A DNA stretch of 61,415 bases, filler included, from Planctomycetota bacterium (GCA_026991575.1; 8 parts of 8 records of this genome joined end to end with filler, not necessarily neighbours in it); one strand, 5' to 3'; numbered from the whole stretch's first letter, positions 10,605-59,370 are shown. Notes: generated from the letters alone by a model not told the origin. A program made the numbers and translations.

Positions 10605-11645
10605 ATGGGAGTGCATGACAAAGCGTACAGACAGTTGTTCGCCAACCCCGAAGTGGTCATGGAACTGCTCTCGGTCCTCTTCCGCCTCCTGTGGGACCGG
10701 CCGGTGCCGATTCAGAACCTCTATCGCGCTGCGGAAGGTCATGTGAGTCGGCGTGCGGACCGATCGCGTCTGGCGGACCTGGTGTGGGTTGCGGAGGTGG
10801 AGGGCCGGTACGTGGTGGTGGTGCTTGAATTCACCCGCACCGTGGAGCAGGACATGCTGGGTCGCATGATGGAGTACATGGCGCTGGCGTGGCGGTCGGT
10901 GAGGCGGGAGCTGTTGTTGCGTGGGGTGCCGGCGGTGCCGTTGGTGGTCGGGGTGGTGATTTACAATGGAGAGGAGCGTTGGACGGCGGCGGAGTGGATT
11001 GGGGAGAGATGGCGGGGCCCCAGCATTGGGTACGTCCGGATCGATGTCTGGCACGACCCGCTGGAGCGGTGGGTGGACTGTCCGCTGATCAGCTATGCGT
11101 TTCGACTGCAGCGGGAGCAGGATGCGGAGCGGGTGGTCGAGTTGCTGCGGGAGTTGGCGGCGCACCTGCGGGCACATGGTTTGGCTCATCTGGAGCCTTC
11201 GTTTGCGTACTTTGCGGGGGCTGTGGTGTTGGGTGGGGAGTTAACTGAGGAGGAGTTATCAGCCATGTCGAAGATCGAAGAGGTCAACACTCGGTTGGAA
11301 CAGCTCAAGGAACGATGTCGGCAGCAAGGGTTTGAAGAGGGCCGTCAGCGAGGATTTGAAGAAGGACGTCAGCAGGGCTTTGAGGAAGGGCGTGAGCAAG
11401 GGCTTAAGGAGGGACACCAGCAGGGTTTTGAGGAGGGACACCAGCAGGGCTTTAGGGAAGGGCGTTCACGGGGGCTGACAGAGGGTCAGCGAGCAGCATT
11501 GCTGGCGGTTTTGGAGGCGCGCTTCGCGCCGCTACCCCAGTGGGCACGCGAGCGGATCGAGCAGGCAGGCAGCGAGGAGCTGAGTGAATGGATCCGTCGC
11601 GCAGCAACGGCCGAGTCCCTCGAACGCGTCTTCGAGAACGACTGA
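10605..11645 (+). CDS. Rpn/YhgA-like (Transposase_31) recombination-promoting nuclease with C-terminal DUF4351-like domain, copy 1
   Basis: HDKAYRQLF, ADLV..., LEF, M..R...Y and VIYNG..W motifs. (Q/E)(Q/R)GFEEGR repeats. ARF.PLP...RIEQA..EEL..W.......SLE.VF tail. Confidence 0.9.
   Translation: MGVHDKAYRQLFANPEVVMELLSVLFRLLWDRPVPIQNLYRAAEGHVSRRADRSRLADLVWVAEVEGRYVVVVLEFTRTVEQDMLGRMMEYMALAWRSVRRELLLRGVPAVPLVVGVVIYNGEERWTAAEWIGERWRGPSIGYVRIDVWHDPLERWVDCPLISYAFRLQREQDAERVVELLRELAAHLRAHGLAHLEPSFAYFAGAVVLGGELTEEELSAMSKIEEVNTRLEQLKERCRQQGFEEGRQRGFEEGRQQGFEEGREQGLKEGHQQGFEEGHQQGFREGRSRGLTEGQRAALLAVLEARFAPLPQWARERIEQAGSEELSEWIRRAATAESLERVFEND
11265..11645 (+). CDS. Putative internally initiated small protein (RpnS-type antitoxin), 126 aa
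   Basis: GAGGAGGAG (11247-11255) lies 9 nt before an in-frame ATG (codon 221). Conserved in four copies. Confidence 0.65.
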   Translation: MSKIEEVNTRLEQLKERCRQQGFEEGRQRGFEEGRQQGFEEGREQGLKEGHQQGFEEGHQQGFREGRSRGLTEGQRAALLAVLEARFAPLPQWARERIEQAGSEELSEWIRRAATAESLERVFEND

Positions 11646-11844
11646 AACACTGACCCACAGCTCCAGGTCCCGGCTGGCCGGTCGGATACACGGTGCCCTC
11701 GTCGGCAATGTTCGGCCTCTTGCAGCCACTCAATCAGCAGCTCGTTCGCAGTGTGTGCAAGCCATACGCGGAAGGACACCTTCGCCACATCCCCGGAGCA
11801 ATTCGTGAACCGAAAGGTTGACGGATCCGGCGTGCCTGAGCGGG

Positions 11845-12391
11845 ATAGGACTAGCAAGCACCGGTTGCCCGGTCCCGCCCCCACCGAACTGGACGCACGG
11901 TTCCCCCGCACCCGGCTCTACAGTCGGCGGCCCTACCACAAAGGAGACTTCCGTGAGGCGGTTAGCCACGCGGGACGGCCAGCCGTGTTCGACTTCAAAG
12001 ACGACCGAGTCACCTTCTGCGCGGCTCGCCTCCAGGCCCAACAACGCACACCGGGCTGGGACCTCACCATCTCACACGCCGTCACCCGGGGCCGCCGGGA
12101 GACAACCTCCAGCTTCACGGCCATCGCCAGAGCCTTACTCCAGCTCCGCCACCTTCTTTAGCCATCCCGAGCAGTCACGCTGGTGCCCGTCTGCCGCTGC
12201 ACCTTCCGCTCGCCTCCACTTTCCTGGGGCCCTTCGCTGTACGGGCATTAGCCCGCTTCCTCGCTTGCTTGCCACCCTCTGACTCCTGATGGGCCGCTCC
12301 TCCTGTCGGTTCGGTGCTCCGATTCGCCCCAGTCCGGCGAGCACCAAGCGGACCGCCGGGGGACATCTTACAGGGCCCACCCTATACCCTG
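11845..12391 (-). mobile_element. Group II intron 3' remnant (decayed maturase C-terminus + domains V/VI)
   Basis: Minus strand GAGCCGGGTGCGGGGGAACCGTGCGTCCAGTTC (DV, from 11918), then DVI ending CCTAT. Upstream sequence is homologous to 58198-58370 (LGLEASRAEGDSVVFEV vs LSLEAAHTEGQSVLFEV). Confidence 0.8.
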
Positions 12392-16280: not shown

Positions 16281-16492
16281 CCTCCCGCCCATTCACGCAA
16301 GCTGCCTGGGTGATTCGCCCATCCCCTCGGCGGGGTTGTCGCTCTCTGCCCCCCTCGCAAGCACGCAGTTACCTCCCCCTACTGGGGCCAGACCGAACCC
16401 TGGCAGGGCCTTCCACCTCGCCGAACGGGCGCGCTCCGATGCGCACGCCGAGCGGCTGCAAAGCCCCCCTGCCCGTTTGACGTAAGCTGCCC
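16281..16492 (-). mobile_element. Degenerate hairpin repeat (16492-16447) + group II intron 5' end (16446-~16316) + start of a second hairpin repeat (16315-16281)
   Basis: Reverse complement aligns with 32286-32490. It starts GTGCGCATCGG...GGTGGAAG...GGTAACTGCGTGC. Confidence 0.6.
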
Positions 16493-16592
16493 AACCGGTG
16501 CGCCTGCCGCTTCGGCCGCTACCAACGCCGCGCCGGGCATCAAGCCAGCCGATCCCACGACGCCACGCTGAACTACCGGCTCTGCGCCTGTG

Positions 16593-26797: not shown

Positions 26798-26989
26798 GGA
26801 CGCGACAGGTTCACGCGGCCAGGCACACATCAGAGCCTCGCCCGGATCATCTGCTCCCGGGCAAGTCAGGCGCGTCATGGGGGCATGAGACGTGCCGCTG
26901 TTGAGCCGCATGCCCAAAGCCGACCACGCCGTAGCGTCGCGGCAACGGCAACGCGAGTCCGGCTCCTGGCCGCACCTTCTGCTCAGCTA

Positions 26990-32234: not shown

Positions 32235-32312
32235 CGCCTGCGCGTGGGCCGTTCCGTGTGCTGACACCCGGTGTTGCCGCTGGCCGGGCAGGGAGCTTCC
32301 TGCCCCGCGCCG

Positions 32313-32456
32313 GTGCGCGTCGGAGCACGCTCGTTCAGCGCGGTGGAAGTCTTCGCAGGCAGTTTCGTCTGGACCCTGTAGCCGAAGGTAACTGCGTGCT
32401 TCCGAGAGGCTTCCGAGAGGGGCGTGCAGACCAACAACCCCGCGGAGGGGATGGGT
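32313..32456 (+). mobile_element. Group II intron 5' end remnant
   Basis: Starts GTGCG and contains GGTGGAAGTC and TAGCCGAAGGTAACTGCG, which resemble group II domain I motifs. Preceded by a degenerate hairpin repeat ending GCCG (32286-32312). Second copy at 16446 (-). Confidence 0.6.
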
Positions 32457-32457
32457 G

Positions 32458-32600
32458 ATTCAACCCAGCAGCTTGCGTGAATCGGCGGCAGGGGGGCTTT
32501 ACGCCCCCCTGCCGCAAGGTTGATCGGTAGCGCCGGCGCATCCCAAGAAGTTCCTTCGCCGCCGAGCCGCGGGCAGGATCGATCCCGCCCGCGGCTCGGG
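32458..32600 (+). repeat. Two-hairpin interspersed repeat, complete copy
   Basis: TTCAACCC...GCGGCAGGGGGGC-TTTAC-GCCCCCCTGCCGC (13-bp stem, 32485-32515), AAGGTTGATCGGTAGCGC, then a second stem CCGAGCCGCGGGC..TCGA..GCCCGCGGCTCGG (32562-32599). Confidence 0.85.
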
Positions 32601-32662
32601 TGCTGCGATTCGCTTCAGCCGTCGGCGTGGGCGAGGAGATTCCGCTGAGGCTACCGACTGTG

Positions 32663-32736
32663 GTGCCGAATGCGGGAGAACCGTGCGCCCGGTTCGGAGG
32701 GGGCGGGCTCCGGGCAACCGAGCCTGCTACCCCAAT
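32663..32736 (+). mobile_element. Group II intron domains V/VI remnant
   Basis: GTGCCGAATGCGGGAGAACCGTGCGCCCGGTTC (AGC triad changed to TGC), then DVI ending CCCCAAT. Same 3' flank as the 11845 copy. Confidence 0.75.
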
Positions 32737-32941: not shown

Positions 32942-33886
32942 TCAGTCTTTCTCAAAGACGCGTTCGAGAGAGTCGGCCGTTGCCGCGCGACGGATCCACG
33001 CGTTCAGTTCTTCGCTGCCTGCCTGCTCGATCCGCTCACGTGCCCACTGGGGTAGCGGCGCAAAACGCGCTTCCAACACCGCCAGCAATGCTAATCGTTG
33101 GCCCTCTTCGAGCCCTTGCAGACGCCCCTCCTCAAATCCTCGCTGATGGCCCTCTTCAAACCCTTGCCGTCGACATCGTTCCTTGAGCTGTTCCAACCGA
33201 GTGTTGACCTCTTCGATCTTCGACATGGCTGATAACTCCTCCTCAGTTAACTCCCCACCCAACACCACAGACCCCGCAAAGTACGCAAACGAAGGCTCCA
33301 GATGAGCCAAACCATGTGCCCGCAAGTGCGCCGCCAACTCCCGCAGCAACTCGACCACCCGCTTCGCATCCTGCTCCCGCTGCAGTCGAAACGCATAGCT
33401 GATCAGCGGACAGTCCGCCCACCGCTCCAGCGGTTCGTGCCAGACATCGATCCGGACGTACCCAATGCTGGGGCCCCGCCATCTCTCCCCAATCCACTCC
33501 GCCGCCGTCCAACGCTCCTCTCCATTGTAAATCACCACCCCGACCACCAACGGCACCGCCTGCACCCCACGCGACAACAGCTCCCGCCTCACCGACCGCC
33601 ACGCCAGCACCATGTACTCCATCATGCGACCCAGCATGTCCTGCTCCACCGTGCGGGTGAATTCAAACACCACCACCACGTACCGGCCCTCCACCTCCGC
33701 ACCCCCCACCAGGTCCGCCAGACGCGATCGGTCCGCACGCCGACTCACGTGGCCTTCCGCAGCGCGATAGAGGTTCCGAATCTGCACCGGCCGGTCCCAC
33801 AGGAGGCGGAAGAGGCCCGAGAGCAGTTCCATGACCACTTCGGGGTTGGCGAACAACTGTCTGTAGGCTTTGTCATGCACTCCCAT
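32942..33886 (-). CDS. Rpn-family nuclease, full copy with 3 C-terminal repeats; internal start at 33226 (94 aa)
   Basis: Near-identical to 10605..11645 outside the repeat tract. Confidence 0.9.
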   Translation of the reverse strand: MGVHDKAYRQLFANPEVVMELLSGLFRLLWDRPVQIRNLYRAAEGHVSRRADRSRLADLVGGAEVEGRYVVVVFEFTRTVEQDMLGRMMEYMVLAWRSVRRELLSRGVQAVPLVVGVVIYNGEERWTAAEWIGERWRGPSIGYVRIDVWHEPLERWADCPLISYAFRLQREQDAKRVVELLRELAAHLRAHGLAHLEPSFAYFAGSVVLGGELTEEELSAMSKIEEVNTRLEQLKERCRRQGFEEGHQRGFEEGRLQGLEEGQRLALLAVLEARFAPLPQWARERIEQAGSEELNAWIRRAATADSLERVFEKD

Positions 33887-34727: not shown

Positions 34728-35496
34728 TTAGTCGCTGTCAAAGACGCGTTCGAGAGAGTCGGCCGTTGCCGCGCGACGGATCCACGCGTTCAGTTCTTCG
34801 CTGCCTGCCTGTCGATCCGCTCACGTGCCAACTGGGGTAGCGGCGCAAAACGCGCTTCCAAGACCGCCAGCAATGCTAATCGCTGGCCCTCTTCGAGCCC
34901 CTGTAGGCGTCCCTCTTTAAGCCCTCGCTCACGCCCCTCCTCGAACCCCTCCTCAAATCCGCGCTGACGGCCCTCTTCAAACCCTTGCTGTCGACATCGT
35001 TCCTTGAGCTGTTCCAACCGAGTGTTAACCTCTTCGATCTTCGACATGGCCGATAACTCCTCATCAGTTAACTCTCCACCCAACACCACAGACCCCGCAA
35101 AGTACGCAAACGAAGGCTCCAGATGAGCCAAACCATGTGCCCGCAGGTGCGCCGCCAACTCCCGCAGCAACTCGACCACCCGCTCCGCATCCTGCTCCCG
35201 CTGCAGTCGAAACGCATAGCTGATCAGCGGACAGTCCGCCCACCGCTCCAGCGGATCGTGCCAGACGTCGATCCGGACGTACCCAATGCTGGGGCCCCGC
35301 CATCTCTCCCCAATCCACTCCGCCGCCGTCCAACGCTCCTCTCCATTGTAAATCACCACCCCGACCACTAACGGCACCGCCGGCACCCCACGCGACAACA
35401 GCTCCCGCCTCACCGACCGCCACGCCAGCGCCATGTACTCCATCATGCGACCCAGCATGTCCTGCTCCACGGTGCGGGTGAATTCAAGCACCACCA
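34728..35496 (-). pseudogene. Rpn-family nuclease, 5' end in gap, 1-nt deletion near 34811
   Basis: CCTGCCTGTCGATCC vs CCTGCCTGCTCGATCC in the 32942 copy. The homologous tail ...LERVFDSD* ends at 34728. Internal ATG at 35047. Confidence 0.8.
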
Positions 35497-58197: not shown

Positions 58198-58447
58198 GGT
58201 GGAGAAGCTGGAGCGAGGCTCTGGCGGAAGCCGTGAAGCTGGAGGTTGTCTGCCGGCGGCCCTGGCGACGGGGTGTGGGACGGAGGTCCCAGCCTGGTGT
58301 GGGTTGTTGAGCCTGGAGGCAGCCCACACAGAGGGTCAGTCGGTCCTTTTTGAGGTAAGACCGCCGACCGGAGAGCGGTATGCGGGAGAACTGCACGTAC
58401 GGTTCGAAGGGGGCGGGCCCCGAGCAACCGGGGCTTGCCACCCCTAT
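58198..58447 (+). mobile_element. Group II intron 3' part (maturase tail remnant + intact-looking DV/DVI)
   Basis: GAGCGGTATGCGGGAGAACTGCACGTACGGTTC (DV from 58373, AGC triad), DVI ...CCACCCCTAT; upstream GLLSLEAAH. Confidence 0.85.
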
Positions 58448-59191
58448 CAAGGCTGATGGATAGCGCGGGCGCATCTGCAAGAGATTTCTTTCTTTCCTGG
58501 CCGCGGGCGGGTTCGACCCCCCCGCGGCCCGGGCGGTCCGATTCCATTGGGCAGGCGCTGTGCACAGAGAGACTGCGCTGTCGTCCCGGAGGGAGCGCGA
58601 TGCCACCTCGCCGACGCCGCAGACGGCCGTCCGCGGCGTCGGGGCTTCTTCAAATGGGAAACAGAAAAAAACAAAACCTCGTACCACCCGCCCTACCCAT
58701 CAACACAGCGGCAGGGGGGCATAAAGCCCCCCTGCCGCCATTTCACCGTAGGCGGCGGGTTGAACGGTTCTGCAGCGCAGGCGGACCGAACCGGCGCCCG
58801 GGCCGTTTGGCGGGCGCAGCCGGGCGCGACGCAAGCCGCTGGGTATGGCAGCAACGGGTGCGGGACGGGCGCGGTTCGCATCGTTGCGACGAGCGGTAGA
58901 AGCTGCGCGTGTGGCGGCCGGCGGATGGTTCAGCGGTGCACGCCACGGCGCCGGGCGACCACAAGAGTAGCCCGGACCCTGCGACCGGAATTGCTGAGTC
59001 AACCCGCCAGCCGGCTTCGATGAGCGGGAGGGGGGGGGGTTTCGTGCCCCCCTCCCGCAAGGTTGATCGATAGCGCCGCCGCACCCAAAGACTAATTGTT
59101 CCCACCCGAGCCGCGGACGGGTCGATCCCGCCCGCGGCTCGGCTACCCAGCACTGCCCTGCCGCCGCGGCTCACGCCCGCGGCGGCAGGGC
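58448..59191. repeat. Cluster of three hairpin-repeat copies in alternating orientation
   Basis: 3' half at 58448-58531 (+), full copy at ~58611-58765 (-), full copy at 58999-59142 (+), and an extra 15-bp-stem hairpin at 59155-59191. Confidence 0.85.
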
Positions 59192-59370
59192 GACGAGGGA
59201 TTCAAGAGGATACCACCGGCGGTACTCGATGAACTTGCGATAGGCGCAGCAAGCCCCGCTCGCCCTGGCTCTGCCCCTCGCAGGCTCGACTCACCCGCTA
59301 TCTGATGCAGAGGCCTGGTTTAGAATGGCAGAGGAGTGGCCCGCCGCAGTGTCAGCGAGGCATCCTGCCA

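Follow-up and report, generated by a model that had tools for sequence, protein, structure and literature searches.

Group II introns of class C (IIC) have no endonuclease (En) domain and land behind terminator stem-loops, other inverted repeats or attC sites; the stem-loop substitutes for a missing IBS2, according to the available portions of PMC1702495 and PMC4424553. The same portion of PMC1702495 gives as criteria of the class an IBS1-EBS1 pairing of 3-4 bp, a CGC triad in domain V (DV), a distal stem 2 bp shorter and an abbreviated ribozyme. Palindromic repeats and attC-like structures have been connected with other group II introns as well. The extract of PMC1525189 scores a Pseudomonas putida group II intron at 2/9 with REPs, a weak association, and the part of PMC7923331 at hand places IIB/class E fragments beside attC-like structures.

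The window analysed here is a stretch of 61,415 bases made of eight contigs (C157, C160, C161, C163, C167, C168, C169 and C177) joined by linkers of the form N44-TTAATTAATTAA-N44. The source assembly, labelled G000, comprises 4.96 Mb in 191 contigs. The window holds pieces of a group II intron beside copies of an interspersed repeat, R. A reading of the window from its sequence alone (the sequence-only reading) had proposed an intron lineage that homes to this repeat and always enters at the same nucleotide, on the 3' side of the base of its hairpin 1, and a census of junctions, rebuilt insertion sites and covariation of EBS1 argue that it was right. We put at about 0.85 the probability that the intron is a group II retroelement with an En-minus RT/maturase, that it uses class C-like sites, and that its insertion base is set by a 5-bp EBS1-IBS1 pairing.

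Intron pieces in the window and the genome

The features of the window that bear on the intron and the repeat are these:

11845-12391, minus strand: ORF-less intron copy, 3' part, running into the contig edge (C157); DV/DVI sub-threshold
16281-16446, minus strand: mosaic element, 5' 166 nt, running into the contig edge (first base of C161)
16447-16500, minus strand: degenerate R left arm and hairpin 1 as 5' exon; 11.0 bits with the left-half profile
32280-32312, plus strand: 5' exon of the mosaic element, hairpin GGGCAGG-GAGCTT-CCTGCCC then CGCGCCG; 3.1 bits with the left-half profile
32313-32736, plus strand: mosaic mini-element of 424 nt, dead (in C167)
32942-33886, minus strand: YhgA-like (Transposase_31) gene; PF04754, E=2.2e-10
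58198-58447, plus strand: last 250 nt of an ORF-less intron copy (C177:1-250); 3' splice site after 58447
58448-58654, plus strand: right half of R as 3' exon; right-half profile E=7e-19, model positions 1-96
58655-58775, minus strand: R2, a short repeat variant with an empty site; left-half profile match at C177:512(-)
58956-59200, plus strand: complete empty R copy; junction 59057|59058 (C177:860/861)

Because the window consists of joined contigs, the apparent intron ends at 58198 and 16281 mark the limits of contigs and do not reflect truncation in the genome. Pieces abut the start of C177, the start of C161 and the end of C157, which is why no intact intron is visible, as had been observed; the element at 32313 is the sole piece lying within a contig.

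The piece at the start of C177 ends in DV/DVI (58371-58447), where RF00029 scores 43.1 bits against a gathering score of 40. The match stops exactly at 58447, the 3' end named beforehand, and the linker CAAGGCTGATGGATAGCGC and hairpin 2 follow directly, also as described. The repeat half at 58448-58654 runs from this linker through hairpin 2 (~58498-58533) and a conserved stretch to a terminator-like GC hairpin with a T-run. The R2 copy at 58655-58775 (-) is convergent with it, and its junction lies between 58709 (-1) and 58708 (+1), reading ...CCCCCCTGCCG|CTGTGTTGATGG; the corresponding 3' exon, CTSTGTTGATGG, also stands directly after the intron in C19 and C48. In C157, the copy at 11845-12391 matches nt 347-588 and 1881-1970 of the reference intron, reaches 25.2 bits with RF00029 at 11840-11920 (-) in a permissive scan (below threshold), and is followed, in place of R, by a 3' exon that corresponds to the conserved tail region of a paralogous YhgA-like gene.

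Two intron 5' ends starting with GTGCG had been cited, at 32313 (+) and 16446 (-), each after a hairpin-like stretch. Both exist, and both belong to mosaic dead elements whose own 3' exon is not the R linker. The element at 16281-16446 (-) contains intron nt 1 to ~108 and then an R left arm. The element at 32313 starts with intron nt 1 to ~108 (32313-32420), continues through a small hairpin into a complete R core (~32457-32647), and closes with a decayed DV/DVI (32676-32736, plus strand), for which RF00029 gives 21.1 bits, below threshold, and in which UGC replaces the AGC triad. The EBS1 loop is absent from its alignment; together with the UGC triad, this marks the element as dead. As 3' exon it has the tail region of a paralogue of the YhgA-like gene.

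The 5' exons of both elements had been called degenerate versions of hairpin 1. For the exon before 16446 (-) this is reasonable, since its 11.0 bits are equalled by 3 of 2000 random 90-mers. Before 32313 the hairpin-like stretch is there, but its likeness to hairpin 1 is weak: 3.1 bits, exceeded by 5 of 2000 controls. Two repeats had been given as empty. Their junctions do read ...CCCCCCTGCCG|CAAGGTTGATC at 32514|32515 and ...CCCTCCCG|CAAGGTTGATC at 59057|59058, but the copy at 32504-32525 sits inside the element that starts at 32313, about 170 nt beyond that 5' end, and is the empty site of the element's R core.

In the whole genome, RF00029 finds 16 places at E up to 10 and exceeds its cut-off at four: C48 (54.6 bits), C19 (47.2), C177 (43.1) and C93 (41.7). 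C19:13745-15714 is a complete intron of 1970 nt (GTGCGCG...CTACCCCTAT), the reference used here. Its ORF, the RT/maturase reading frame expected in domain IV of a group II retroelement, encodes 412 aa with RVT_1 (1e-42), GIIM (1.8e-13) and a YADD motif; Pfam gives RVT_1 and GIIM only, with no endonuclease domain. Nucleotides 658-1808 of the reference match nowhere else in the assembly, so C19 is the only RT-bearing copy assembled; the remaining copies have no ORF or are decayed. The 250-nt piece in the window holds ~94 nt that are absent from C19 and recur in 10 further places, C140 among them, indicating that an ORF-less derivative has multiplied. The last 127 nt of C140 are identical to the first 127 nt of C177 and are shared by no other contig. 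Joined, the two give one ORF-less copy of ~825 nt with a degenerate 5' end, GTACAC.

RF00029 detects DV/DVI with the catalytic triad and a bulged branch-site A. The 5' part scores 24.3 bits with RF02003 (D1-D4-4) against a gathering score of 49 (E=0.02), and its assignment to the intron would rest on continuity with the complete copy and on the covarying EBS1 hairpin. Judged by its sequence, the group II intron in this genome is real.

Several other observations concern the genome at large. C93:3616-6200 (-) is an intron with a DV/DVI of 41.7 bits and without anything before ~nt 374 of the reference; directly upstream, in place of the missing 5' part, is a 338-aa ORF that by eye resembles an IS-type transposase. 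PF07596 (DUF1559-type) occurs at 34 places in this genome and at none in 14 control genomes; we take the family to be tied to planctomycetes, consistent with a planctomycete host. At 26828-26906 (-) a weak resemblance to the RpsF leader stays below threshold, with 24.2 bits where 37 would be needed.

The repeat and its junctions

R had been described as a short unit of two hairpins. Alignment of 29 copies corrects this: the unit is ~300 nt long and has additional conserved sequence as well as an end that resembles a terminator. The unit begins with a small hairpin, a left arm (..GAATCAACCCGSCAGCTTGCTTCRATGG), hairpin 1 (a 13-bp G/C stem) and the linker (CAAGGTTGATGGATAGCGC...), and continues with hairpin 2 (a perfect 14-bp palindrome), ~70 conserved bases and a terminator-like GC hairpin with a T-run. 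The variant R2 consists of the left arm, hairpin 1, CTSTGTTGATGGGTAGCGCGGGC and a T-run, and is often convergent with R. Compensatory changes preserve hairpin 1, whose three fully paired variants account for 19, 14 and 14 of 62 sites. RNAalifold applied to 23 copies recovers hairpins 1 and 2 and nothing else. A long-range ATCAACC/GGTTGAT pairing was dropped, as one variant (C48) supports it and several break it, and the idea that hairpin 2 is a disguised domain V was rejected for its perfect palindrome without a DV bulge.

This genome contains 76 pieces matching R. A search of 20 relatives found none in 19, including the intron-bearing G001, and a marginal 42-nt match in G013; R appears to be a repeat specific to this genome or lineage. 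An Rfam scan of two R copies with their surroundings gave no convincing family (best Ms_IGR-5, 26.5 bits against 45), and the group II models gave no match to R at E up to 10. With its two covarying hairpins, R may represent a family of small RNA genes or an element of MITE type. Examples outside the window are C179:11150-11480 and C118:16772-18317. Copies of R are embedded in larger mosaics. One sub-family of R forms the 3' part of an element of ~1.45 kb, which extends ~1030 nt leftward to a sharply defined shared start (GGAGGCGGTTGCGATGTCCGCAAG; boundary at C118:18317) and contains an ORF fragment resembling a transposase N-terminus by eye; this element is also present in C117, C184, C153 (twice), C154, C16, C135 and C182.

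For the census, profiles of the left and right halves of the site were searched against the genome. Among 76 left-half matches, 62 reach the junction: 50 are empty and run into the linker, five lead directly into GTGCGCG (C70, C80, C122, C146 and C170) and seven do otherwise, two of these being empty sites missed by the filter and most of the rest the reverse strand of the palindromic hairpin. Right halves start at the junction in 40 of 71 matches, 39 of them after the hairpin and one (58448) after the intron 3' end. The junction base is identical throughout, G|C in 5/5 intact occupied and 50 empty sites, and this single shared base excludes chance. In folds of hairpin 1 the -1 base is paired in 55/62 sites and the +1 base in 44/62, so that the intron splits the last base pair of the stem. 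All five occupied sites end in GCCCG, compared with 8/50 empty ones (Fisher p=3.7e-4; the five are not independent events, because the final ~43 nt of exon are the same within the pairs C80/C146 and C70/C170). GCCCG is the hairpin 1 variant that pairs best with CGGGU; the commoner endings among the 50 empty sites are TCCCG (18) and TGCCG (15). The first 3' exon base is C in 47/50 empty sites of this genome.

Starting from the intron gives a complementary view. Its 5' exons score against the left-half profile in 16 of 21 cases, compared with 68 of 2000 random 90-mers; five reach 40-55 bits, C26 23.8 and C86 16.7, and the profile finds no match in the 5' exons of C19, C75, C121, C48 and one C16 copy. 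A linker-like 3' exon follows only 6 of 19 intron 3' ends, being of R2 type in C19 and C48, of R type in C177 and degenerate in C27, C26 and C16. Another six of the 19 share a YhgA-gene flank (C149 twice, C167, C157, C173 and C143), and the rest are unrelated. The sequence-only reading had combined junctions of different copies to rebuild the empty site; the reconstruction also succeeds on single copies, namely C19 and C48, each on one contig, and C140+C177 across the 127-nt overlap.

The YhgA-linked remnants and the mosaics have a history of their own. Decayed introns occupy the same position 3' of YhgA-like genes, suggesting that gene and remnant were duplicated together. The region past the 3' end of the gene at 32942-33886 is the 3' flank shared by the six decayed copies, and because this flank is common to copies of different internal structure it points to duplication of a larger segment. 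YhgA-like genes are multi-copy (32942-33886 (-), 34790-35494 (-) and the flank of 11500-11845).

The build of intron nt 1-~108, small hairpin and complete R core is combined with a decayed DV/DVI in C167, C139 and C149. A young 5' sub-family of the mosaic (C70, C146, C170 and C80) is 95-99% identical over 148-175 nt; its members stand behind an intact hairpin 1, in R copies with different upstream sequence, and all reach contig ends. Four of the five fresh occupied sites thus lead into the mosaic type without EBS1, and the shared ~43 nt of exon mean that gene conversion competes seriously with homing as the explanation of these four. A mosaic would result from one deletion running from intron nt 109 to the next tandem R. 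Head-to-head arrangements were also seen, at C70:1-651, C146:12315-13335, C92:1-800 and C173:27635-28907, in which an inverted intron from nt ~99 abuts intron nt 82-110 and an R unit across a palindromic junction. Target-site duplication, template switching and twin priming were considered for the mosaics and head-to-heads, and none fits cleanly.

Choice of the insertion base

Aligning domain I of the copies in this genome with that of G001, a relative from another genus, revealed a 5-nt loop, CGGGU at intron nt 175-179, as EBS1; IBS1 is the last five exon bases, GCCCG. The RT lineage (53-63% identity) also supplied copies from genomes of the same class, seven from G220, seven from G194, four from G081 and two from G199. 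Across the six genomes the loop varies in step with the exon end:

G220: EBS1 TAGGG, exon end CCCTA, pairing 5/5
G194: EBS1 TAGCA, exon end TGCTA, pairing 5/5
G081: EBS1 GTGGC, exon end GCCAC, pairing 5/5
G199, copy 1: EBS1 TGACC, exon end GGTCA, pairing 5/5
G199, copy 2: EBS1 TGACC, exon end GGCCA, pairing 4/5
G001: EBS1 GAGTG, exon end CACTC, pairing 5/5
G001: EBS1 TGCGC, exon end GCGCA, pairing 5/5
G000 (this genome): EBS1 CGGGT, exon end GCCCG, 4 Watson-Crick pairs and 1 G-U

A check of EBS1 pairing, proposed together with the homing hypothesis, therefore came out in its favour: the domain I loop can pair with the end of the exon, and in five other genomes the two sequences change together. 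In 12/12 aligned sequences EBS1 occupies the terminal loop of a conserved hairpin. Exceptions occur. Two of four readable G001 copies do not pair (C175, GAGTG against CGGTC; C162, TGCTC against CGGTC), and the RT-bearing copy in C19 forms only 3 bp with its own exon (CTACCG), behind a hairpin that is not hairpin 1.

A hairpin stands upstream of the junction in 26/26 copies of the other genomes (G220 7/7, G194 7/7, G081 4/4, G199 2/2, G001 6/6), and the spacing from GC hairpin to 5' junction is 2-3 nt at every junction in G220, G194, G081 and G199. The seven target hairpins of G220 make up a REP-like family: their stems differ by compensatory changes, and each ends in CCCTA|; one intron sequence thus stands behind stems of different sequence, which makes a fixed IBS2 pairing impossible. 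In G194 the same hairpin, CACAGGCTGGAAGCCTGTGCTA|, occurs at 5/7 sites. The near-identical copies of G220 and G194 have unrelated 3' exons, which fixes the 3' boundary of the intron, and the +1 exon base is C in 6/7 copies of G220, 7/7 of G194 and 2/2 of G199. The recognised target appears to be a GC hairpin plus a 5-nt IBS1, not R as such, and the rule of insertion is hairpin, 5-nt IBS1 and C at +1. Target hairpins also occur in short tandem arrays, upstream of the intron 5' end in G001:C384 and in G194:C14; one array has a period of ~33 nt (GCGGCAC-NGGA-GTGCCGC ACTCCAAAGAACCAAA), and the other repeats GTCGCAGGCTGGAAGCCTGCGCTACGAGGAAGCA.

These data suggest a model in which the intron would select DNA as IIC introns do, a few bases after, or at the foot of, a GC-rich stem-loop. 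The exact base would be set by the 5-bp pairing of EBS1 CGGGU with IBS1 GCCCG, with C as nearly always the first 3' exon base. Hairpin 1 of R is the commonest hairpin with the right end in this genome, and for this reason the intron recurs at G|C before the linker. It may be the hairpin itself that is recognised. Apart from the RT-bearing copy in C19, the family consists of ORF-less derivatives, which were probably mobilised in trans at some time, and of decayed stumps. By analogy with En-minus introns, insertion may proceed by reverse splicing into single-stranded DNA, with priming at replication forks.

The same junctions might have arisen without repeated homing, had the intron entered R once or a very few times and occupancy later passed between R copies through duplication, unequal recombination or gene conversion. 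Several observations fit this: the ~43-nt identity of 5' exon ends between C80 and C146 and between C70 and C170, where the intron side is 95-99% identical; the nature of the six decayed copies, segmental repeats with a long 3' flank that includes a YhgA-like gene; and the lack of EBS1 in the mosaic copies, which would leave them unable to home alone. Yet occupied R copies have different left arms, and intron copies with R-like exons on both sides (C19, C48, C26, C27, C16 and C140/C177) are strongly divergent. Spread from so few entries would also leave unexplained why EBS1 is complementary to exactly this site and, in the other five genomes, changes in step with unrelated ones, and why near-identical copies in G220 and G194 carry unrelated 3' exons. 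We consider it improbable as an account of the family, and prefer repeated homing to the hairpin.

Derivation in the opposite direction strikes us as very improbable; here the hairpins and linker of R would have been domains of a small ancestral intron, with the 424-nt element as its representative, and the empty sites would be pieces of intron instead of targets. The mosaic does have intron-like ends, its R core lies between such ends at a fixed junction in at least nine copies, and its 424 nt are close to the size of the smallest known introns. However, 39/40 right halves and 50 left halves have no adjoining intron sequence, R was not found in 19/20 relatives even though G001 among them has the intron, and the complete intron and its relatives have a different domain I after nt ~110. 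R also matches no group II model at E up to 10, and its hairpin 2 lacks the DV bulge. Nor do we see more than the faintest chance that the assembly, which is fragmented and probably metagenome-derived, produced the junctions artificially through chimeric joining at repeats: many copies do stop at contig edges, including those at 58198 and 16281 in the window, and the head-to-heads of C70, C146 and C92 lie near contig ends, but junctions lie deep within contigs C19, C48, C26, C27, C16, C86 and C173, and the same rule holds in the complete single-contig genomes G220 and G081. Homing to a hairpin with a paired IBS1 thus remains our preferred reading.

Comparison with known systems

Hairpin plus five paired bases predict the insertion base in six genomes, which amounts to a natural experiment on how an En-less intron chooses DNA. 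Lineage-specific interspersed repeats can serve as harmless landing pads that sustain an intron family, and introns and R together explain many contig breaks in this assembly. A wider reading, which we regard as tentative and on balance unlikely, is that these introns form a separate En-minus lineage, widespread in planctomycete-like genomes, which combines stem-loop targeting with a non-IIC ribozyme (AGC triad, large domain I, a 5-bp IBS1 possibly within the stem) and uses lineage-specific REP-like repeats as safe pads, with stump-plus-repeat chimeras spreading in the present genome. If true, this would conflict with a generalisation in the literature by which class C alone deviates from site-specific homing; and should the RT turn out not to belong to class C, stem-loop targeting would have arisen, or persisted, beyond its supposed sole class.

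The lineage resembles class IIC introns such as B.h.I1 of Bacillus halodurans and GsI-IIC in its En-less RT/maturase, insertion after a stem-loop, short IBS1, absence of a fixed IBS2 and intergenic sites. Among solved structures the IIC RTs are nearest to its RT (6ar1, 2.2e-68; 7uim, 1.6e-61), ahead of a IIB RT (5e-44) and LtrA (3e-38). In contrast to IIC, the DV triad is AGC, not CGC (DV, GAGCCGUAUGCGG-GAGAACCGCACGUACGGUUC), and DV falls short of the Rfam consensus by just 1 nt. At ~745 nt (~594 before and 151 after the part that ORF-less copies lack) the non-coding RNA is long; the smallest near-complete copy, in C48, is estimated at ~650 nt with its 5' end placed by eye. Whereas IIC introns pair 3-4 bp, IBS1 spans 5 bp in G220, G194, G081, G199 and G001, and 4 Watson-Crick pairs plus 1 G-U here. 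In this genome IBS1 lies wholly within the 3' strand of the stem, with the +1 base also paired in 44/62 sites, and the hairpin belongs to an interspersed repeat with no T-run directly after it, again unlike IIC.

As with the IIC-attC introns (S.ma.I2), the target is multi-copy structured DNA recognised as a stem-loop, in the terms of the excerpted PMC4424553, but no integron context was seen and hairpin 1 is a perfect 13-bp stem, not a bulged attC. With REP-associated elements (ISPpu9/10 and IS1397 in the available text of PMC1525189) it shares the use of an interspersed palindromic repeat as landing pad; the REP case comes with no pairing rule in that text, whereas the site here is exact and explained by EBS1. 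A title/abstract keyword search of the open-access literature found no pairing-explained exact insertion of an intron into an interspersed repeat. One RT-bearing copy among many ORF-less ones recalls the cyanobacterial ORF-less copies served in trans, and repeats acting as a perpetual harmless homing site recall the nested introns of Methanosarcina acetivorans, both as outlined in the sections of PMC4424553 at hand; mosaic stump-plus-repeat elements are, by contrast, absent from the description in those sections. Taken together, the targeting is class C-like in an RNA that lacks the IIC hallmarks tested (AGC triad, long), and on present sequence evidence hairpin-seeking appears to be a variant of a known intron habit rather than the mark of a new kind of element.
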